In this document: piece by piece, positions 1,566 to 14,452 of the stretch
How the letters are laid out: every line of letters starts with the position of its first letter
Position numbering within the stretch: position 1 is the first letter of the stretch
IMG/VR virus record: IMGVR_UViG_2700989509_000022
Strand: one strand, 5' to 3'
DNA from: a virus
Taxonomy: Duplodnaviria; Heunggongvirae; Uroviricota; Caudoviricetes
DNA: 14,452 nucleotides
Made by a program: the position numbers and the translations under genes
Notes under the pieces: model-generated
Told to the model about the DNA's origin: nothing
Seen by the model: the letters and a program-made list of their open reading frames with translations, nothing else
Databases searched by the model: none

Positions 1566-1721
1566 TTACTCCTCAGGTTCGTAAGCTGTGAAGACAGCGA
1601 CCTCCGTCTGGCCGGTTCGGATTCGTACCTCGCAGAGGTCTTTCCTCGTTACCAGTGTCGTCACTATGACGGTTAAACAGATGACGATCAGGGCGATTAA
1701 CATCGCCTTTTGCTGCTTCAT
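1566..1721 (-). CDS. hok: Hok/Gef-family type I toxin (51 aa)
   Basis: MKQQKAMLIALIVICLTVIVTTLVTRKDLCEVRIRTGQTEVAVFTAYEPEE matches the Hok/Gef membrane toxin pattern, closest to HokD/RelF as I recall it. ATG at 1721 with AAGGAG 9 nt upstream. An in-frame upstream ATG at 1778 may reflect the mok frame. Confidence 0.8.
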   Translation of the reverse strand: MKQQKAMLIALIVICLTVIVTTLVTRKDLCEVRIRTGQTEVAVFTAYEPEE

Positions 1722-2033
1722 AGCCTGCTTCTCCTTGCCTTCCGGCACGTAAGAGGCTAACCTACATGTGTCTAGCATAAATTGGCCTCAGATTAATGTT
1801 AAGCGTCTTGCAGGACGCGTAATGTTAACTGGGGCTTTTCTCTATCTGCCTTTGGTGTTCATGCCTGAGACAGATAGCCTCAAGCACCCGCAGCCATTCT
1901 ACTTAACTCCCGTTACCCCGCCAATATGAAATCAGTCAGAAAGGCGATCCATAAGAATAATGAATTCTGTAAGGCAATAGTCTCACTGTCTAACATATCT
2001 TACCTGATTACTTTACAATATAATAATTCATAG

Positions 2034-2678
2034 TTAAATCAAATGAATGTCATCATCCAATAATTCATTAGTAGTAATACTACCTTTTTTGAAAAAATTT
2101 TCATTTGCCTCAGCAATTTTTGCATCATTAACAAATTCATCACACATCCCAAAATAATGAAAAAATCTATTTAGTTTACATATTCCAATGGTATAGTGCC
2201 CTTTAGGTGTTTTGTCCACATAAACACGATTTGCTTTTATAATATGCATCTCATAATCATCTATATGTGGATGAACGATGCGAAATGATGCAGATGCAGT
2301 TGGATAGTTTTTGCGCCGCCCCCCATTTATTACGGGTTCAAATAACACTTCATTTTTACCTTTGAATTCATTGCAGTCAGGACATACTACACATAGATTC
2401 TTAGGTTCAAAAATAAAACATAGATATTGAGATTTTGGCACAATATGCTCTATAGGAGCAGCTTGTGCAGCTCTTACCCCAATAGGCTCATGACAATATA
2501 CACATTCTAGCTTTTGTTCTTCTCTGTAATGATTTCTAATTTCTGCACGGAGAACTTGCAAATCATCATCTCCCCAGTTGGTATGCTTAAAATCTGGAGA
2601 AGACAATTTTTTCTCAATAATATCTAATGACTCTGCGCTGAATCTAATTGGATTTTTAATTTTTGGCATAAATTTCAC
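2034..2678 (-). CDS. HNH endonuclease, PtuB-like (Septu-like nuclease component)
   Basis: CVYCHEP ... IEHIVPKS ... CVVCPDCNEFKGKN gives CxxC, a catalytic His and CxxCxxCN, i.e. an HNH ββα-metal motif. Visibly AT-rich. Start is GTG at 2678 or ATG at 2669, with AGGTG upstream. Overlaps the upstream ATPase by 14-23 nt. Confidence 0.7.
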   Translation of the reverse strand: MKFMPKIKNPIRFSAESLDIIEKKLSSPDFKHTNWGDDDLQVLRAEIRNHYREEQKLECVYCHEPIGVRAAQAAPIEHIVPKSQYLCFIFEPKNLCVVCPDCNEFKGKNEVLFEPVINGGRRKNYPTASASFRIVHPHIDDYEMHIIKANRVYVDKTPKGHYTIGICKLNRFFHYFGMCDEFVNDAKIAEANENFFKKGSITTNELLDDDIHLI

Positions 2679-4029
2679 ACACCTGAGATACGGAATTTAC
2701 GAGTTCATTAATAGGGTCATTACTATTAACGTTTTCAAGGAGAAGCTGGAGTTGTTTTAATTCACGCCAATTATCATCTGTTACTAACTTAGCAGTCTTA
2801 ACTTTTGAAAGTAAATTGAAAGCTAATCTGGCAATGTATTCATTCATAATGCCAGGGGCATCAAATAGTTCCGCAAGTTGATAGTCTGCAGACCGGTTGC
2901 TAAAGTATTTTGCTTTATAAAGATAACTTTTCGACAAAGATGTTATATAACAACCTTTATTCGGCAAATTGGATATTATTTGTGGTGAATGAGTTGCAAT
3001 TATGAATTGACAACCTGAGTAAGTTAAAAATGCTTTTGTTAACATAATGATAAACTCTTCCTGCCATCGAGGATGCAAGCTTATTTCCGGTTCATCAATT
3101 AGTATTATAGAACCATCAGTTATATGCCCTGCAATTCCAAGCAACATCACTAATAAACATTGTTCTCCCGAGCTCGCACGTTTAAGTGACATGGGACCAT
3201 AGCTTTTTTTTATGAGTCGCATATCCATCAATCTCATGAAGCCAGCGTTCATAAGTTTAAGAATTGATCTAGAAAAATAATTATTCGCATAAGTCGAGCC
3301 AACCAATGTTTCACCATTGGTAAAATCGACTGACAAGGTTACAGCCCTACGTTCAGGTTCAAATCGATTAATTTCAACCAGTGCTTCGTAAATATCATGA
3401 CGTGATTCGGAGTTTAACTTTAAGAGACTCTCAATATTCTTCCTGTCAATTTTTATATTGTATTTTAAATATAACTCCTTAACTTCCGTTAATATCTCAT
3501 CTGAATATACACCAATGAAGTTATAGTCAGGAGTGTCCGGTCCGTTGTAAGTTGGTTTAAATACAAACTCTATATGGGGCTCAAAATCAATAGAATGAAA
3601 AACATCGAGTAAATTTGCAGGATTTTCTGAATAAGCAAGTTTCTCTAGCCAACCTCTCGCTGCTGAAGATAAAAGGGATACGGCATTTGATACGCCGAAG
3701 GGGCCTTCTCCACGCATACCCACATAGCGATAATTATTTTCTTTCCTTTGGTGATTTAATGACCTACGCCCTGGAGGGAATTTATCGAATGGGCTGGTAG
3801 ATACGGCAATTAACTTTGGTGTTATTTCTCTGTCAAATAATGGATTAAAAGTTTTCAAGAAATGAACATCTTGAATACAGTCTTTAGCAATCTGAGATAA
3901 CAATCTGCTTTTTCCAACGCCATTTTTACCTACAATTACTGTAAAAATATTCGCATTATCAGAAACATCACCTTCTACAGCAAGTTTTAAGGTTCGACTA
4001 TCATGATGGGTATAATATAGTCTTTTCAT
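2656..4029 (-). CDS. ABC/AAA_21-type ATPase, PtuA-like (Septu-like ATPase component)
   Basis: Walker A VGKNGVGKS, signature-like ASSGEQ, Walker B IILIDEPEISLHP and H-loop IIATHSPQI in a 457-aa ORF. AT-rich, and the stop overlaps the start of the HNH gene. Confidence 0.75.
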   Translation of the reverse strand: MKRLYYTHHDSRTLKLAVEGDVSDNANIFTVIVGKNGVGKSRLLSQIAKDCIQDVHFLKTFNPLFDREITPKLIAVSTSPFDKFPPGRRSLNHQRKENNYRYVGMRGEGPFGVSNAVSLLSSAARGWLEKLAYSENPANLLDVFHSIDFEPHIEFVFKPTYNGPDTPDYNFIGVYSDEILTEVKELYLKYNIKIDRKNIESLLKLNSESRHDIYEALVEINRFEPERRAVTLSVDFTNGETLVGSTYANNYFSRSILKLMNAGFMRLMDMRLIKKSYGPMSLKRASSGEQCLLVMLLGIAGHITDGSIILIDEPEISLHPRWQEEFIIMLTKAFLTYSGCQFIIATHSPQIISNLPNKGCYITSLSKSYLYKAKYFSNRSADYQLAELFDAPGIMNEYIARLAFNLLSKVKTAKLVTDDNWRELKQLQLLLENVNSNDPINELVNSVSQVCEIYAKN

Positions 4030-4413
4030 TTTATTTTTCTCTCATTAAAATGCTCTTAATTAAGAATACCTATGCCTTTAACAGGCTCATAGTTATGATT
4101 TGTGATGCTTTCAAAAGGGTATGTAACTAAGTATTGAACTCTACACCTAAGATTCTAAGATTTTTAAATTAAAGTAGTTAAACATGCTTTTGATTGTACT
4201 CATTCTATGTCCATCGTTGCTGCATGTCTAGATATCGTGCCCCGCTATTGTTATGTAATGATATGATGGACGCCCTGTCTGAAGCAGCCAGTGAAATATT
4301 TTTACTGTCTGCGTTTTCTACAGGAGTAAATCACATGAGCACAATCAGAGTTGTTGGTATTGATATTGACCTGTGCCCAATTTTTTGAGACATATATTGG
4401 TACGCTCTTGGCA

Positions 4414-4435
4414 CAGGGCTGCTGCTGCAGCCCTG
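4414..4435. repeat. Perfect 9-bp inverted repeat with 4-nt loop (CAGGGCTGC-TGCT-GCAGCCCTG)
   Basis: Read directly; lies within 10 nt of the stop of the recombinase remnant on the minus strand. No U-tract, so not a canonical terminator. Confidence 0.6.
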
Positions 4436-4441
4436 ACAGCT

Positions 4442-5010
4442 TTAGACTTCGATCGATTCAGAGATCTCTAATGCATCATCAACTTCTATACCCAGATAAC
4501 GAACTGTGCTTTCCGTTTTCTTATGGCCCAACGGAAGTTGGATCACCCGGAGATTCTTAGTTTTCTTGCAGACAAGGCAAGGTTTTGTTCTTCTCATGGA
4601 ATGTGTGCTGTAAAGCGAATCTTCGAGACCAAGCTTTTCTCCCCCCTATGAAAGATTCGGTTATATTGCAGGATTGATATGTGTTGGTTAGTACCGACCC
4701 GAGATCGGAACAAGTAGTCTTTACTGCGTAAATTGCCAAGCTTTATCAATGCAGAAACAGCTTCTCTTGTCCCTTTGGTTATCTCAAATTGGATAGGACT
4801 GCCAGTTTTTCAGTTGCAGCACCGTAGCTCTGCTTGAAACCGAGCTAAATCACGCGTTTTACCTTCCAGTTCAAGCCGGATTTGGAGCCCCCAGATATGA
4901 GATATCTGAAGTGGTCTTTTTGGGCCTATGATACTGTCTTTGTTCCTCGGTGACGTATTCATACTCAAATCTCCTGCAATGTGGAAGATTTGAGTATGGT
5001 TGTCTCTCAA
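4442..5010 (-). pseudogene. Decayed tyrosine recombinase/integrase with at least two frameshifts
   Basis: Minus-strand translation ending at stop 4442..4444 gives KNLRVIQLPLGHKKTESTVRYLGIEVDDALEISESIEV, a typical tyrosine-recombinase C-terminus (compare Xer DLRVIQELLGH...Y). The preceding frame (4557..4739) carries RRFALQHTFHEKNKTLPCLQEN, the HxxR box region. No single long ORF remains; the 4810..5010 piece is in a third frame. Confidence 0.55.
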
Positions 5011-5067
5011 GAGCGAAATAGGTCAACTATAACTAGTTGTTGTGCATGTACGAATTCTGCCAATTAA

Positions 5068-5910
5068 TTATTGACAATAAAAAATTCTGGAATGTTCGAA
5101 ATCATCATATCGAATTATAATCTGGTTGACTGCATCTATTGTTGGCGCCATTTCAGTTATAATATCTCGATAACCTAAAGAGTTAAATACATTTACTAAG
5201 GCCTCACACCGCAGGCCAATAGCAATTACGACATTATAAATTGCCAGCCGTTTATTTTCTTGTTTAACTGCAAGAGTGAGTTCGATAGCAGTAGTTTTAT
5301 CGCTTTGGATTGCATTATATAGAGATACTATATTTGCCATATCATCAGAGAATGTATGTATTGAATCACAAAGAGGGACGTAATAGGCATGATAGTGTGT
5401 TTCCCAGCCAATTACTTCGAAAAGCTTTTTGGTTCCAGGATATTCAGGTGTATTTGGCCACAATCTATTAAACATATCAGTTAGCTCTTTTCCGATACGA
5501 ATCCTTTCATCTGCTGCTGGATTAGTCATTTCTTTGGATTTTAAACACTCCAGCCACCGTTTCCCATTACTATGAACTAATTTCTTACTACCCTTGAGTA
5601 ATGCTTGTGCATTTTTTCCATCATCAATTGCTATATAAAATTGATTGGCAGCCTGTTCCATTATAACTCTAGTTAATACTTCCGATGCTGAAAAGGCTCC
5701 GGTACTCAAAGAAAATATAGCCTGATTACTAAGTTCATTCAGTACATTAAAGTAATGTAAAACCATCAATTTTTGTTCCACCCCCTTTAGGTTATCTATT
5801 TTATTTTTATGCCTCTCAAATTTCGCATGGATATATTTATTTATCGCGGCTATTTTTTTTACATCTTCGTCGAAATCAAACGGGCAACGTCCAAACGATT
5901 TTTTCCTCAT
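5068..5910 (-). CDS. Hypothetical protein (280 aa), AT-rich cargo gene of unknown function
   Basis: ATG at 5910 with AGGAGG 5 nt upstream. Composition differs from the flanking prophage genes. I recognise no catalytic motif. Confidence 0.8.
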   Translation of the reverse strand: MRKKSFGRCPFDFDEDVKKIAAINKYIHAKFERHKNKIDNLKGVEQKLMVLHYFNVLNELSNQAIFSLSTGAFSASEVLTRVIMEQAANQFYIAIDDGKNAQALLKGSKKLVHSNGKRWLECLKSKEMTNPAADERIRIGKELTDMFNRLWPNTPEYPGTKKLFEVIGWETHYHAYYVPLCDSIHTFSDDMANIVSLYNAIQSDKTTAIELTLAVKQENKRLAIYNVVIAIGLRCEALVNVFNSLGYRDIITEMAPTIDAVNQIIIRYDDFEHSRIFYCQ

Positions 5911-6349
5911 ATATTCCTCCTGTTTTACAATCTCCCATAAGTTGGAAAATTATACACTGGAGATTACCTATAAATAACTGCGCACGATAGCTAGTCAGTG
6001 CAAGAAGTACAACCAAGTGAACGGTGCGTATCAGATACCTAGCTTAAAGTTCGCGATAGCCGTACTCTGTGTATTAGCTCAGACATTACCTGACAGGTTG
6101 AGTAGATAGAATCGAATCAAAGCTGACAGTCTGGTTTGGACTGTGGGGTCAACCGATGGATGCAACACACAGCGATCTACAGACATTACTAACATAGCGG
6201 TGTATTAATCATCGGGGAGCAGATCAGACTAACATTAAGCATTAGTAGTAATTTGCAGAGCATCCGTTTCTTACACAAAGCAAACCCCCACGCTAGCCCA
6301 ACCCTGTGCCACACAATGTCAATTCACATCTGAACTAATGCTCTTTAAT

Positions 6350-6624
6350 CTAGTAACGTCTAAAATATCGAACATTTCCCTGATAAAATGCCAGTATGCG
6401 CTGCATAACTTCACTCATTGTGGTGGTTTCTTCCGGCAGTTCTGCCTGCGCTGGCTGTTCCTGCTGAACGTTGTTATAAGCCACACGCCAGGTGTACGCG
6501 CTTTTATCAACAAAACCAGCCTTTTTCAGTTCCCATAGTTCGTTCAGCACTTCTTCACGCGCGCAGCAAGTTCTATGGATGTGGCTTTTCCCATTGCTTT
6601 CAGTGCGTCAAAAACAGTCTCCAT
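6350..6624 (-). pseudogene. Ren-like winged-helix protein gene, apparent single-base frameshift
   Basis: ATG at 6624 with GGGAGG 6 nt upstream gives [26 protein letters not shown] then TGA. The adjacent frame continues [26 protein letters not shown]...[18 protein letters not shown] with no ATG. The joined product resembles lambda Ren as I recall it, and the gene sits directly after the P-like gene as ren does in lambda. Confidence 0.5.
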
Positions 6625-9750: not shown

Positions 9751-10668
9751 ATGTACAGAAAACAGCAGCTCATACATTGCATTCTGTGCTGCGAGAAATC
9801 GGGAAAGATATTGCAAGCGAGCCAGCAACAGGAACCGGAAAAAGTCTGCACCGCCTGCGGTCAGAGCGGTGGCGGCAACTGCCCTGATTGTGGCGCGGTG
9901 ATGGGTGACACAACATACCAGGAAATATTCGATGAAGAGAATCAGCCTGAAGTTCAGGAAAATGATCCGGAGGAAATGGAAGGTACTGCACATCAGCACA
10001 AGGAGAACACTGGCGGCAATCAGCATCATGCCAGCGATAGTGAAACTGGCGAGGCGTCAGATCCCTTAATTAAGGCGAACAGTCATCATAATCTCACATC
10101 CACCAGCAGAGCGGGGATTCATCTGATGATCGACCTTGAAACCATGGGAAAAAATCCCGATGCCCCGATTATCTCAATAGGCGCAATATTTTTCGATCCG
10201 CAAACCGGAGATATGGGACCAGAATTTAGCAAGACCATCGATCTGGATACTGCTGGCGGAGTCATTGATCGTGACGTCATTAAATGGTGGCTGAAGCAAT
10301 CACGTGAAGCGCAGTCTGCCATTATGACCGATGAAATCCCGTTAGATGATGCACTACTGCAATTGCGGGAATTTATCGACGAAAACTCCGGTGAATTTTT
10401 TGTTCAGGTCTGGGGTAATGGGGCCAACTTCGACAACGTGATTTTACGCCGTTCATACGAACGACAGGGTATCCCCTGCCCGTGGCGCTACAGCAACGAT
10501 CGCGATGTACGCACAATCGTTGAGCTGGGGAAAGCCATAGACTTCGATGCCAGAACTGCTATCCCATTCGAAGGTGAGCACCATAATGCACTTGATGACG
10601 CTCGTTACCAGGCAAAATACGTTTCAGCTATCTGGCAAAAACTGATCCCGAGTCAGGCTGATTTTTAA
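9751..10668 (+). CDS. DEDDh 3'-5' exonuclease-domain protein with Cys-rich/acidic N-terminal region; start uncertain
   Basis: Exo motifs MIDLET (D-x-E), WGNGANFD and HHNALDDA (H-x4-D). Possible starts: 9751 (no SD; CxxCC...CxxC...CxxC zinc-ribbon-like), 10126 (MIDLETMG with GGGGA upstream), or a frameshifted fusion with the 54-codon ORF at 9726..9887, which has a good RBS. Confidence 0.7.
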   Translation: MYRKQQLIHCILCCEKSGKILQASQQQEPEKVCTACGQSGGGNCPDCGAVMGDTTYQEIFDEENQPEVQENDPEEMEGTAHQHKENTGGNQHHASDSETGEASDPLIKANSHHNLTSTSRAGIHLMIDLETMGKNPDAPIISIGAIFFDPQTGDMGPEFSKTIDLDTAGGVIDRDVIKWWLKQSREAQSAIMTDEIPLDDALLQLREFIDENSGEFFVQVWGNGANFDNVILRRSYERQGIPCPWRYSNDRDVRTIVELGKAIDFDARTAIPFEGEHHNALDDARYQAKYVSAIWQKLIPSQADF

Positions 10669-10720: not shown

Positions 10721-10930
10721 ATGGCTATGAGCAGCTTATTTTTAACCGAAGATGAATTGCTAATATTAACAGGCTGCAAATATGCAAGCCACCAGCGAAA
10801 ATGGTTAATGGAAAACGGGCTTCCGTTCTATACCAATCGTAGTGGCAAACCGATTGTCAGCCGGGATCTATTTACCTGCAATAAAACTTTACCACCACGC
10901 GAGGTAGAGCCGAATTTTGGTGCAATCTGA
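10721..10930 (+). CDS. xis: Excisionase-like protein (69 aa, DUF4224-like)
   Basis: Small ORF immediately upstream of int; its TGA overlaps the int ATG (TGATG). LTEDELLILTGCKYASHQRKWLMENGLPFY resembles lambdoid Xis-position proteins (recalled). Confidence 0.65.
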   Translation: MAMSSLFLTEDELLILTGCKYASHQRKWLMENGLPFYTNRSGKPIVSRDLFTCNKTLPPREVEPNFGAI

Positions 10931-11955
10931 TGGGAAGACGAAGGAAAAATCCTGAACACGAAAAATTACCTCCAAATGTATACCCAAATAAATATAGTTA
11001 TGTATGGAAACCAACATCCAGAGAATCTGTAACACTAACCGCCATCAAGGATGGTTTAGCTGCTTTATGGAAAAAGTATGAGGAAACTGTAAATAATCAC
11101 GATCGTGCAATGACATTCGGTCGCTTGTGGGAAAAATTCCTCGCCAGCGCCTATTACAGTGACCTTAGTCCAAGAACACAAAAAGATTATCTGCAACATC
11201 AAAAAAAGTTGCTTGCCGTATTCGGTAAGGTACCAGCGGATGCCATAAAACCAGAACACATCCGTCGATACATGGACAAAAGAGGGGAGCAGAGTAAAAC
11301 GCAAGCCAACCATGAAAAAAGCAGTATGTCCCGCGTTTACAGTTGGGGGTATGAGCGAGGTTACGTGAAGGGTAACCCATGTGCAGGTGTAAGTAAATTC
11401 AAGGCCAAAAACCGCGAACGATATGTAACCGACAAAGAATACCAGGCAGTATTAAGCGTTGCACCTCTTCCTGTTTTTATCGCAATGGAAATTGCCTATC
11501 TGTGTGCAGCGAGGGTTTCCGATGTGTTATCACTGAAATGGGAGCAGATTGGAAACGACGGGATCTTTATCCAGCAAGGGAAAACAGGGAAAAAACAGAT
11601 AAAAGCATGGAGTCCACGATTACAGGCGGCGATCGAAAAAGCAAAACAGTTACCAGCATCCGTCTATGTAATCAGCAATCAATATGGCAACCGATATATG
11701 TACAAAGGCTTTAACGAAATGTGGGTAGAAGCAAGAAATCGCGCAGGCAAAATTTCAGGTATTTTAACCGACTTCACCTTTCATGATCTGAAGGCGAAAG
11801 GAATTTCAGACTATGAAGGAAGCAGCCGGGATAAGCAACTTTTCTCTGGTCACAAAACCGAGGGGCAAGTGCTAATCTATGACAGGAAGGTTAAAGTTTC
11901 ACCAACACTTGATGTCCCGTTACCTGAAAATATTCCAAGAAAATATTCCAAGTAA
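10930..11955 (+). CDS. int: Tyrosine-recombinase phage integrase
   Basis: 341-aa ORF with C-terminal catalytic region (...FHDLKAKGISDY...SGHKTEGQVLIYDRK...), ending 52 bp from the 3' end of tRNA-Ser. Confidence 0.9.
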   Translation: MGRRRKNPEHEKLPPNVYPNKYSYVWKPTSRESVTLTAIKDGLAALWKKYEETVNNHDRAMTFGRLWEKFLASAYYSDLSPRTQKDYLQHQKKLLAVFGKVPADAIKPEHIRRYMDKRGEQSKTQANHEKSSMSRVYSWGYERGYVKGNPCAGVSKFKAKNRERYVTDKEYQAVLSVAPLPVFIAMEIAYLCAARVSDVLSLKWEQIGNDGIFIQQGKTGKKQIKAWSPRLQAAIEKAKQLPASVYVISNQYGNRYMYKGFNEMWVEARNRAGKISGILTDFTFHDLKAKGISDYEGSSRDKQLFSGHKTEGQVLIYDRKVKVSPTLDVPLPENIPRKYSK

Positions 11956-12007: not shown

Positions 12008-12097
12008 TGGCGGAGAGAGGGGGATTTGAACCCCCGGTGGAGTTGCCCCCACTCCGGTTTTCGAGACCGGTCCGTTCAGCCGCTCCGGCATCTCTCC
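12008..12097 (-). tRNA. serU: tRNA-Ser (anticodon CGA)
   Basis: Reverse complement reads GGAGAGATGCCGGAGCGGCTGAACGGACCGGTCTCGAAAACC...GGTTCAAATCCCCCTCTCTCCGCCA: type II tRNA with long variable arm, anticodon loop CUCGAAA, encoded CCA. The serU-mtfA-asnT context fits E. coli. Confidence 0.93.
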
Positions 12098-13088: not shown

Positions 13089-13164
13089 TCCTCTGTAGTT
13101 CAGTCGGTAGAACGGCGGACTGTTAATCCGTATGTCACTGGTTCGAGTCCAGTCAGAGGAGCCA
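13089..13164 (+). tRNA. asnT: tRNA-Asn (anticodon GUU)
   Basis: TCCTCTGTAGTTCAGTCGGTAGAACGGCGGACTGTTAATCCGTATGTCACTGGTTCGAGTCCAGTCAGAGGAGCCA, 76 nt, anticodon loop CUGUUAA. Locus identity is inferred from the mtfA neighbour. Confidence 0.93.
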
Positions 13165-13288: not shown

Positions 13289-13535
13289 TGAACGCCATCA
13301 CCATTTTCCCCTCGATTATAAAACTTGAGTTATTCAGTAGTCTCCCCTCTTGCAACTCACCCCCAAAACTGCCTAACGAAAAGTTATTAATTTTCAATCA
13401 TATTGCTATCAGGATTTACATTTTTTCGCTGTGCTAGAAAGGGGTAAGCGTACAGCCTGAACCGTCTGGTCAGAATCTGACGAATTAGACAAAGTGGTGT
13501 CCACCAAATAAGTAGTGGGAACCAAAGTATCAGAT

Positions 13536-13916
13536 ATGCAGAAAAATGTGACTCCCGGCAGGCGAAAAGGCTGCCCTAATTATCCTCCCGAATTTAAACA
13601 GCAGCTCGTTGCTGCCTCCTGTGAACCCGGGATATCCATCTCAAAACTTGCTCTTGAAAATGGCATTAACGCCAATCTGTTGTTCAAATGGCGACAACAA
13701 TGGCGCGAGGGAAAGCTGCTATTACCTTCTTCAGAGAGCCCCCAGCTACTTCCTGTGACTCTCGATGCAGCTGCCGAACAGCCAGAATCGCTCGCAGAGG
13801 ACCCGGAAACCCTCAGTATCAGCTGTGAGGTAACGTTCCGGCACGGGACGCTCCGCTTCAATGGCAATGTCAGCGAAAAGCTCCTGACTCTGCTGATACA
13901 GGAACTGAAGCGATGA
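13536..13916 (+). CDS. tnpA: IS66-family accessory protein TnpA (orfA)
   Basis: MQKNVTPGRRKGCPNYPPEFKQQLVAAS... is typical of IS66 orfA (recalled). The track ORF begins at GTG 13515; ATG at 13536 preferred. Confidence 0.8.
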   Translation: MQKNVTPGRRKGCPNYPPEFKQQLVAASCEPGISISKLALENGINANLLFKWRQQWREGKLLLPSSESPQLLPVTLDAAAEQPESLAEDPETLSISCEVTFRHGTLRFNGNVSEKLLTLLIQELKR

Positions 13917-14260
13917 TCCCGTTACCTTCCGGGACCAAAATTTGGCTGGTTGCCGGTATCACCGATATGAGAAATGGCTTCAACGGCCTGGCTGCGAAAG
14001 TACAGACGGCGCTGAAAGACGATCCCATGTCCGGCCATGTTTTCATTTTCCGGGGCCGCAGCGGCAGTCAGGTTAAACTGCTGTGGTCCACCGGTGACGG
14101 GCTGTGCCTCCTGACCAAACGGCTGGAGCGTGGGCGCTTCGCCTGGCCGTCAGCCCGTGATGGCAAAGTGTTCCTTACGCAGGCGCAGCTGGCGATGCTG
14201 CTGGAAGGTATCGACTGGCGACAGCCTAAGCGGCTGCTGACCTCCCTGACCATGCTGTAA
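13913..14260 (+). CDS. tnpB: IS66-family Orf2 (TnpB)
   Basis: MIPLPSGTKIWLVAGITDMRNGFNGLAAKVQ...; start overlaps the tnpA stop (ATGA). Confidence 0.85.
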   Translation: MIPLPSGTKIWLVAGITDMRNGFNGLAAKVQTALKDDPMSGHVFIFRGRSGSQVKLLWSTGDGLCLLTKRLERGRFAWPSARDGKVFLTQAQLAMLLEGIDWRQPKRLLTSLTML

Positions 14261-14309
14261 ATCTCTTTATCCTGGTTGTCACAGAATAAGCCCGGTAAAA
14301 TACGGGCTT

Positions 14310-14452
14310 ATGAACGACATCTCTTCTGACGACATCTTCCTGCTGAAACAGCGCCTGGCCGAACAGGAAGCGCTGATCCACGCCCTGCAGGAAAAGCTGA
14401 GCAACCGGGAGCGCGAAATAGACCATCTGCAGGCGCAGCTGGATAAACTCCG
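14310..14452 (+). CDS. tnpC: IS66-family transposase TnpC, N-terminal fragment (truncated by window end)
   Basis: ORF open to the window end: MNDISSDDIFLLKQRLAEQEALIHALQEKLSNREREIDHLQAQLDKL, the coiled-coil N-terminus typical of IS66 transposases. Confidence 0.75.
   Translation, partial: MNDISSDDIFLLKQRLAEQEALIHALQEKLSNREREIDHLQAQLDKL

Follow-up and report, generated by a model that had tools for sequence, protein, structure and literature searches.

A lambdoid Escherichia coli prophage carries, between hok/sok and the replication gene P, a cassette with two overlapping genes for an ATPase and an HNH nuclease, and the question raised by this locus is whether the pair is an anti-phage defence system and, if so, of which type. 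The window examined here is the whole 14,452-nucleotide stretch of DNA. A first-pass annotation had read the pair as Septu-like (PtuA/PtuB) cargo of the prophage, while allowing for a distinct ATPase-HNH family.

Gene structure and conservation of the pair

The following features were delimited in the window:

2656..4029, minus strand: ptuA, 457-aa ABC/SMC-type ATPase (ORF with profile, motif and fold evidence)
2034..2669, minus strand: ptuB, 211-aa HNH nuclease (ORF with profile, motif and fold evidence)
4030..4236, minus strand: non-coding region upstream of ptuA that moves with the cassette (Klebsiella variicola homology and promoter scan)
2021..4236, no strand assigned ("."): mobile ptuAB cassette, the unit common to unrelated prophage backgrounds (blastn against K. 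variicola loci)

The ATPase ORF was found as previously described (457 aa, 2656-4029, minus strand). The HNH ORF had been given as 214 aa, and such an ORF does exist at 2034-2678 on the minus strand, GTG 2678 being the start of the longest mechanical ptuB ORF; however, the conserved start is the ATG at 2669, from which a 211-aa protein beginning MPKIKNP is read. RefSeq uses the identical start, which also agrees with the consensus N-terminus of the homologues. Because the conserved ptuB start is this ATG, the overlap between the two genes, real as it is, amounts to 14 nt rather than 23 nt. The genes ptuA and ptuB are translationally coupled and lie on the same strand, forming one operon. In RefSeq they appear as WP_000827089.1 ("AAA family ATPase") and WP_001124204.1 (HNH endonuclease).

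The pairing was counted in 58 loci from other species, 52 of which contain the ptuA 3' end; in all 52, a ptuB homologue lies directly downstream on the same strand, and the stop and start of the two genes usually overlap. The same pair occurs among unrelated neighbours in Pseudomonas and Klebsiella. Compared with the K. variicola copy, dN/dS was 0.14 for ptuA and 0.22 for ptuB, and both genes are under purifying selection.

Profiles, motifs and predicted folds

All the ATPase motifs noticed earlier were found in PtuA: Walker A (G34-KNGVGK-S41, with K40 as the catalytic Lys), an ABC signature-like motif (S286-SGEQ-290, in which Q290 is the canonical signature Gln), Walker B (I308-ILIDEPE-315, with D312/E313) and the H-loop (H347). 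K40, SSGEQ 286-290, D312/E313 and H347 were invariant in an alignment of 52 homologues. The PADLOC PtuA profile PDLC00283 matched with an E-value of 1.2e-165 and 549.9 bits, residues 2-455 aligning to positions 3-447 of 448, and the Pfam families AAA_21 (74.3 bits) and AAA_15 (61.8 bits) each scored above their cut-offs. A profile search also links the protein to the solved PtuA of Ec83 (profile positions 26-363). The earlier remark that the ATPase is short for a PtuA did not hold for stand-alone proteins, given best PADLOC PtuA profiles of 432-483 positions and a solved chain of 465 aa from the E. coli Septu system. The AlphaFold model of PtuA (pLDDT 82) contains three C-terminal helices within residues 392-456. 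When this model was compared with the PDB using Foldseek, the top matches were only PtuA chains (E 3e-9 to 1e-6, probability 1.00), with modest TM-scores of 0.2-0.34.

The HNH motif of the ptuB product is likewise complete. Its motif residues (ATG numbering), namely a zinc finger formed by C56xxC59 and C96xxC99 together with H75, N91, N100 and K103, were invariant or nearly so in an alignment of 56 homologues. The PADLOC PtuB profile PDLC00325 matched with an E-value of 1.1e-83, residues 7-212 of the 214-aa GTG ORF aligning to positions 2-205 of 213; Pfam HNH scored 23.9 bits (cut-off 21.4), and phrog_36683 matched over 211/211 positions. A phmmer search of PtuB alone against the PDB gave no sequence match, and the profile search links it to the solved PtuB chains 9n69_F, 9e8z_E and 8ee7_C. 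The PtuB model (pLDDT 85, C-terminal helices at 155-203) retrieved exclusively PtuB chains as top Foldseek matches, the first being the E. coli Septu PtuB 8eea_G (probability 1.00, TM-score 0.49), and the TM-scores were again modest (0.44-0.49). Overall, the PADLOC Septu, Pfam AAA_21/AAA_15 and HNH profiles were all positive, the PADLOC Septu matches were full-length, and the single-chain models matched solved PtuA and PtuB chains first and best, so the Septu-like reading of the ATPase-HNH pair stands.

A plain PDB sequence search with PtuA ranked AriA first, over the Walker B segment. This result would fit a pair belonging to another ABC-ATPase/nuclease family, that is, PARIS (AriA/AriB), OLD/Gabija, AbiL or the PADLOC candidate PDC-M01, as would two sets of partial matches: AriA, AbiLi and PDC-M01A align with the Walker B region, and PDC-M01B aligns with PtuB. 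The ABC ATPase core of AriA is indeed related to that of PtuA. However, the rival matches either cover no more than some 80-170 residues or fall 450 bits or more short of PtuA PDLC00283; the AriA match itself is partial (E 2.9e-22 over residues 270-353, with AriA profiles covering about 80-130 residues), and about 45 PtuA chains come before AriA among the Foldseek matches. Moreover, the partner nuclease is of the HNH type, not the Toprim/DUF4435 type of AriB, and no Toprim partner is present at the pair. Membership of one of these other families is therefore very unlikely.

The pair was further compared with type I-A retrons (Retron-Eco7/Ec78 and Eco4/Ec83), which are Septu type II and whose PtuA/PtuB effector folds are homologous to those found here. 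Septu type I differs from type II in having no associated reverse transcriptase (RT) or ncRNA (PMC8565338). A retron effector half, with an RT and ncRNA nearby, is suggested by weak partial matches to the PADLOC ATPase_I-A and HNH_I-A models and to the NCBIfam retron-Ec78 PtuA/PtuB models, and by the presence of retron PtuA and PtuB among the best PDB folds. Against this, neither an RT ORF nor a retron RNA occurs anywhere in the window: no RT-sized ORF lies beside the pair, and the only RNAs found with Rfam are sok and two tRNAs. What lies upstream of ptuA is instead a conserved non-coding stretch of 207 nt and, beyond it, a degraded (frameshifted) recombinase gene, and no RT adjoins the pair in any homologous locus whose genes were inspected one by one. 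The NCBIfam equivalog cut-offs are 500 bits for PtuA (NF041760) and 150 bits for PtuB (NF041761), and the scores reached only 65.8 and 30.5. Retrons also add msDNA that sequesters PtuAB, and their PtuA proteins (542-552 aa) exceed this one by about 90 aa and contain inserts that bind msDNA; all of these are absent here. We consider it extremely unlikely that the pair is a retron effector.

Since the pair has neither a reverse transcriptase nor a retron RNA nor a Toprim partner, it is assigned to stand-alone Septu type I. The locus is, with a probability of roughly 0.86, a stand-alone Septu type I ptuA-ptuB anti-phage system whose 2.2-kb cassette, complete with a predicted promoter, forms a self-contained unit in the hok/sok-to-P interval. 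The term Septu type I (PtuA/PtuB) follows the definition of Doron et al. 2018 and of PADLOC. The pair is already recognised by standard defence-gene profiles, and the assignment is correct, not new. Literature searches found no mention of WP_000827089, WP_000827088 or WP_001124204 and no published experiment on this Septu cluster, and searches combining Septu with E2348 or hokD returned nothing relevant to the locus.

Extent of the cassette and its putative promoter

A blastn comparison of the window with the K. variicola loci L010-L012 gave a single block of 2224 columns at 2021-4236 (85.3% identity), beyond which no window homology was found in these loci. The K. variicola copy sits in a prophage. 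Within 4030..4236, the promoter scan identified a promoter-like element, TAGACA-17 nt-TAGAAT at 4230-4202 (10/12 matches), upstream of ptuA. Promoter-like sites in this region were no more numerous than in shuffled sequences. The 85%-identical K. variicola cassette has exactly the same element, just upstream of which the homology stops. We infer that this element may serve as the ptuAB promoter. An invertible promoter switch under the FimB-sized recombinase was also considered, and the inverted-repeat scan gave short AT-rich pairs indistinguishable from chance.

The low GC content attributed earlier to the pair is real (0.34 at 2021-4236 and 0.48 in the rest of the window), but the AT-rich tract extends to about 6270 (0.37 at 1962-6273) and thus also covers separate cargo, namely the degraded gene for a recombinase and, at 5068-5910, a DUF5677 gene. 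These two genes were considered as parts of the system but rejected, as the segment in common with the Klebsiella cassette is 2021-4236 alone and the DUF5677 gene occurs in P2-like prophages without ptuAB. Full-length matches to the DUF5677/recombinase segment were found in 54 genomes vs 19 for the ptuAB segment.

Prophage setting and distribution

The first-pass annotation had placed the pair where the Qin prophage carries relBE next to hokD, and this is right: collinearity between the window and Qin extends past rem and hokD to position 1735 and is lost where Qin has relE-relB. The hok/sok-to-P interval carries different cargo in Qin, mEp460, PPompW, Rac-SA53 and 689R5, and this variability, together with the presence of the same cassette in a K. 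variicola prophage, bears out the description of the pair as prophage cargo (a moron). Of 5426 complete E. coli genomes, 19 contain an identical ptuAB locus, among them that of the EPEC reference strain E2348/69, where the pair is E2348C_RS06550 and RS06555 and is labelled "AAA family ATPase / HNH endonuclease". Among INPHARED phage genomes, no DNA match to the cassette was detected beyond the hok flank, and protein matches were only distant. IS insertions and pseudogenes show that the prophage around ptuAB is decaying in some strains.

This setting bears on two other explanations. One is that the pair serves mainly to maintain the prophage (addiction) or to compete with other elements, a toxic nuclease being restrained by its ATPase. 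The pair does adjoin hok/sok and takes the place of the Qin relBE genes, and PtuAB released from a retron is toxic to E. coli (PMC12640716). However, all tested Septu family members protect against phages, and the same interval also holds non-toxin cargo such as the Paa/AdfO adhesin, so a mainly addictive role appears unlikely. Addiction and defence roles are not mutually exclusive. The other explanation is that ptuAB is an inactive remnant whose ORFs no longer make a working system, which would be in keeping with the decay of the surrounding prophage in some strains and the frameshift in the adjacent recombinase gene. In contrast, both ORFs are intact in 19/19 complete genomes carrying the locus, all catalytic residues are present, dN/dS is 0.14-0.22 and the promoter-like element is conserved, leaving little room for this explanation.

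Comparison with characterised PtuAB systems

PADLOC divides PtuA and PtuB into about 50 sequence clusters, and the stand-alone Septu type I system identified here falls into one of them. This cluster is marked in PtuA by STSPFDKF, D[YF]QLAELF and the signature Gln, and in PtuB by a four-Cys zinc finger. This PDLC00283/PDLC00325 cluster is spread over Proteobacteria and Bacteroidota; Bacillus was absent from the motif-based genome scan, which detects exact motif carriers only. Septu systems of Bacillus were reportedly validated by Doron et al. Compared with Septu type I in general, for which PDLC00283 and PDLC00325 are the nearest profiles, the pair has the same operon order (ABC ATPase, then HNH nuclease) without an RT; type I systems are also carried on mobile elements and islands, and no difference at the level of system type was seen. 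The suggestion of a distinct ATPase-HNH family therefore fails at that level, yet it captures the fact that the cluster is very far from the experimentally studied Septu systems compared here.

The first of these is the Septu system of E. coli ATCC 25922 (8EE4, 8EE7, 8EEA, 8SUX), a PtuA6:PtuB2 complex with ATP-inhibited DNA nicking. Its PtuA (465 aa, vs 457 aa here) likewise combines an ABC head with C-terminal helices, but sequence likeness is confined to the surroundings of Walker B (residues 304-359), and Foldseek identity is about 15%. Its PtuB is the best structural match of our PtuB model (8eea_G), and the profile aligns to 8ee7_C over residues 50-187. In the ATCC 25922 PtuA, Leu reportedly replaces the signature Gln and the protein is reported to be without ATPase activity (PMC12819146), whereas Q290 is invariant in the present cluster. 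True ATP hydrolysis, beyond ATP binding alone, is plausible in this cluster because the Gln reported missing from the solved E. coli Septu PtuA is invariant here.

[quoted passage not shown] EcB88 loses defence upon mutation of Walker A/B or of H75/N91 (PMC13096335), and in another E. coli Septu system H75A and K103A abolish defence (bioRxiv 10.1101/2022.06.16.496414). The catalytic His and Asn numbers of EcB88 coincide with H75 and N91 of the PtuB described here. Coinciding residue numbers (H75, N91 and K103) prompted the idea that EcB88 or the system of Wang et al. is identical to the one described here; for EcB88 this was rejected, its sequences and PADLOC clusters being different. Similarity to the EcB88 PtuA is limited to 139 aa, comprising the Walker A and signature-to-H-loop segments, with 29% identity, and the EcB88 PtuB has no significant BLAST similarity (E 0.64) and, by our own reading of its sequence, lacks the CxxC...CxxC arrangement. 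EcB88 falls into PDLC00271 and PDLC00344, which are nearer to the retron I-A effectors.

Proposed mechanism

[quoted passage not shown] C-terminal helices as expected are predicted in both our models (PtuA 392-456, PtuB 155-203). By analogy with characterised Septu and retron PtuAB, PtuA would oligomerise via its ABC head and middle domain, and its C-terminal helix pairs would clamp the helical C-terminal part of PtuB. In an uninfected cell, the nucleotide state of PtuA would hold the HNH nuclease silent until a phage cue frees it. The freed nuclease might then nick or cleave DNA, or cut tRNA as in EcB88 and Retron-Eco7. Phage replication would thereby be halted and the infected cell would arrest growth or die, protecting the lysogen population and the prophage. 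Targets do vary among the relatives, from DNA nicking in ATCC 25922 to tRNA-Tyr cleavage in EcB88 and Eco7 and ssDNA cleavage in Eco4. The target and trigger suggested for this cluster are drawn from these relatives, and given how distant the characterised systems are, neither the substrate (DNA or tRNA) nor the trigger or the oligomeric state can be carried over with confidence.

Significance

The importance of these findings lies mostly in annotation. Because RefSeq gives only "AAA family ATPase" and "HNH endonuclease", the genes in 19 complete E. coli genomes can be renamed ptuA and ptuB (Septu type I). The locus also provides one more case in which the hok/sok-to-P interval of a lambdoid prophage carries defence genes. 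Since almost no sequence is shared outside the ATPase core, the cluster may differ from the three studied PtuAB types in trigger, substrate or nucleotide cycle; separately, the hok/sok-to-P interval may be a defence hotspot, and the neighbouring DUF5677 gene, which is also found at a P2-like prophage cargo site, may be an undescribed defence gene. We put these possibilities forward tentatively. At 2.2 kb, with a predicted native promoter and an E. coli origin, the cluster is a handy, compact representative for Septu work. It represents a branch outside the structural and mechanistic studies compared here (ATCC 25922 Septu, EcB88 and retron I-A PtuAB) and therefore could reveal the range of DNA-versus-tRNA target choice and of ATP control within the family.

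Assignment of ptuAB to Septu type I

The overlapping ATPase and HNH nuclease genes were found to be an ordinary Septu type I pair carried as prophage cargo and already catalogued. Both open reading frames (ORFs) and every ATPase motif named in the first-pass annotation were recovered from the six-frame ORF list and by motif inspection:

2656-4029 (-): ptuA ORF, 457 aa, ATG start
2034-2678 (-): ptuB longest ORF, 214 aa, GTG start
PtuA residues 34-41: Walker A, GKNGVGKS
PtuA residues 286-290: ABC signature-like motif, SSGEQ
PtuA residues 308-315: Walker B, IILIDEPE
PtuA H347: H-loop, ATHS
PtuB, GTG-start numbering: C59xxC62, H78, N94, C96xxC99, N103
PtuB, ATG-start numbering: C56xxC59, H75, N91, C93xxC96, C99, N100

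RefSeq and the homologue alignment agree in placing the true ptuB start at ATG 2669, with a predicted product of 211 aa (N-terminus MPKIKNP); from there, ptuB overlaps the ptuA stop by 14 nt.

The profile search suggested by the first-pass annotation, which had read the pair as Septu-like prophage cargo, bore this out. Both proteins matched PADLOC profiles over their full length, PtuA hitting PDLC00283 (E 1.2e-165, residues 2-455 on positions 3-447 of the 448 in the profile) and PtuB hitting PDLC00325 (E 1.1e-83, residues 7-212 in GTG-start numbering on positions 2-205 of 213); Pfam AAA_21, AAA_15 and HNH were also matched above cut-offs. The NCBIfam retron-Ec78 PtuA and PtuB equivalogs gave weak matches, far under cut-off. 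Neither a retron RNA (by Rfam) nor an RT ORF (in the ORF list) was found in the window; because Septu type II is the RT-associated form in the PADLOC definition (PMC8565338), ptuAB is type I by that definition. The system type is thus known, and the PDLC00283/PDLC00325 cluster is already in profile libraries, with PtuB also in PHROGs (phrog_36683). The HNH part of PtuB is matched as well by PADLOC PtuA models of 726-733 aa.

The pair differs from the studied systems. The PtuA signature glutamine Q290 is invariant in this cluster, whereas for the solved stand-alone PtuA a Leu at this position and a lack of ATPase activity have been reported (PMC12819146). We compared the pair with the EcB88 sequences from the supplement of PMC13096335. 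For PtuA, the alignment was limited to the surroundings of Walker A and to the signature-to-H-loop segment (29% over 139 aa); for PtuB, the pairwise comparison was not significant (E 0.64). In PADLOC, EcB88 falls into clusters PDLC00271 and PDLC00344, close to retron I-A effectors, rather than into PDLC00283/PDLC00325. The match to ATCC 25922 PtuA (8EE4) is confined to residues 304-359. A literature search found no experimental work on the PDLC00283/PDLC00325 cluster.

Predicted structures

AlphaFold models were built on alignments of 52 (PtuA) and 56 (PtuB) homologues, with pLDDT of 82 and 85, respectively. In the PtuA model, an ABC head is accompanied by a middle domain (~116-262) and, at the C-terminal end, by three helices (392-456); the PtuB model has an HNH core and C-terminal helices (155-203). 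In Foldseek searches of the PDB with these single chains, the best folds were PtuA and PtuB chains: ~45 PtuA chains ranked ahead of the first AriA chain, and the top PtuB matches were exclusively PtuB chains, led by 8eea_G (E. coli Septu complex), with retron PtuB next and Cas9 HNH domains after that. Because the TM-scores were modest, as expected with flexible multi-domain chains at ~15% identity, we take the predicted folds as supporting evidence, not as decisive alone. A profile search of PDB sequences linked the PtuA family to Ec83 PtuA over positions 26-363, and the PtuB family to the PtuB chains 9n69_F, 9e8z_E and 8ee7_C.

Prophage setting and neighbouring cargo

The window covers the right-hand portion of a lambdoid prophage and also holds a cI/cro-like pair, YdaT, DnaT-like and P replication genes, rem, and hokD with sok RNA. 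Its landmarks are:

1566-1889 (-): complete hok/sok type I toxin-antitoxin, hokD/mok ORFs; Rfam sok 113.5 bits at 1716-1889
4411-4441 (-): GC-rich hairpin CAGGGCTGCAGCAGCAGCCCTG, right after the stop of a degraded recombinase, upstream of the ptuA promoter region
10930-11955: integrase, adjoining tRNA-Ser(cga) and mtfA
12008-12097: tRNA-Ser(cga), beside the integrase

The window is collinear with the cryptic prophage Qin up to 1735, just beyond hokD, and the divergence falls exactly at Qin relE-relB, where the pair had been placed by the first reading. The hok/sok locus lies 145 nt downstream of ptuB. Compared with loci L013, L014 and L020-L022 from other genomes, the interval from hok/sok to the replication genes (~1962-6420) is a site where lambdoid phages carry variable cargo:

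Qin: relBE-ydfV-flxA
mEp460: 449-aa hypothetical protein
PPompW: Paa/AdfO adhesin
Rac-SA53 and 689R5: unrelated genes

Relative to mEp460, the cargo spans ~1962-6273; a Klebsiella variicola prophage shares 2021-4236 only (85.3% identity). The different cargo in related phages and this shared segment support the reading of the pair as prophage cargo. Its noted AT-richness holds (GC 0.34 for 2021-4236 vs 0.48 for the window outside 1962-6273), but the low-GC tract extends beyond the pair and takes in other cargo. The identical ptuAB locus occurs in 19/5426 complete E. coli genomes, in all of which the two genes carry no label beyond "AAA family ATPase" and "HNH endonuclease"; the E2348/69 copy lies in another prophage, beside potC, and there hokD and ptuB are separated by an IS481 insertion.

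The shared K. variicola segment takes in 207 nt upstream of ptuA, where a promoter-like TAGACA-17 nt-TAGAAT is identical in both species. As a promoter scan of the region as a whole gave no enrichment over shuffles, we infer a putative ptuA promoter here from its conservation in the two sequences. The hairpin CAGGGCTGCAGCAGCAGCCCTG, absent from the terminator-scan output, may insulate ptuAB against read-through.

A second, separate low-GC cargo lies beside ptuAB:

4442-5910 (-): short tyrosine recombinase, FimB/FimE-sized and frameshifted (194-200 aa in intact relatives); DUF5677 protein, intact, 280 aa (phrog_4167)

In P2-like prophages this DUF5677 gene lies between tail-fibre-assembly and tail-sheath genes (L015 7983-9516, L019 6001-6843), the P2 Z/fun cargo site, in some cases together with the recombinase and in others alone; the short recombinase is found beside other variable genes in ~800 E. 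coli genomes. The DUF5677 protein had no PADLOC match; it is possibly an undescribed defence or exclusion gene. Elsewhere in the window are:

9751-10668 (+): 305-aa protein of the early region, Rv2179c-like 3'-5' exoribonuclease domain (E 2.8e-67); site annotated 'exonuclease' in E2348/69 and others
13089-13164: tRNA-Asn
13515-14452: ORFs past mtfA and tRNA-Asn, which we take to resemble the first genes of an IS66-family element (TnpB-like sequence at 13913-14260)

Conservation and gene pairing

The catalytic residues of PtuA and PtuB are all invariant over homologues at 42-90% identity, and against the 85%-identical K. variicola copy ptuA has a dN/dS of 0.14 and ptuB one of 0.22. A scan seeded with motifs and run on one genome per species yielded 58 loci in Gamma- and Betaproteobacteria, Bacteroidota and a few other taxa. 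In all 52 loci holding the ptuA 3' end, a ptuB homologue comes next on the same strand, with the ptuA stop and ptuB start overlapping in most; the remaining 6/58 lie at the end of a contig or consist of an N-terminal piece of an interrupted ptuA. The neighbours of the pair vary from taxon to taxon, which indicates that ptuAB is a self-sufficient module.

In Pseudomonas benzopyrenica (L056/L068) and Stenotrophomonas maltophilia (L044/L069), ptuA is in two pieces on one contig, its N-terminal half several kb away from its C-terminal half, and is therefore split there by an insertion, which may be a mobile element or an embedded system. In Marinomonas rhizomae (L042 3374-5008), the PtuA C-terminal part and PtuB read as one ORF, possibly a fusion or a sequencing frameshift.

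Proposed mechanism

The mechanism for ptuAB is inferred from characterised relatives. Stand-alone E. coli Septu forms a 6:2 PtuA:PtuB complex with ATP-inhibited DNA cleavage or nicking activity (PMC12640716; PMC12819146), with the helical C-terminal domain of PtuB clamped by pairs of PtuA C-terminal extensions (PMC12819146). Septu EcB88 and Retron-Eco7 each deplete tRNA-Tyr instead, via cuts in the variable loop, and both require Walker A/B and H75/N91 (PMC13096335), and H75A or K103A abolishes defence in another E. coli Septu (bioRxiv 10.1101/2022.06.16.496414). Because the present proteins carry the corresponding ABC head, middle domain, HNH core and C-terminal helices, an ATPase-gated nuclease freed on infection is, by analogy, the best-supported mechanism here: PtuA would act as the ATPase gate on the PtuB nuclease, infection would release PtuB, and the released nuclease would lead to growth arrest or abortive infection.
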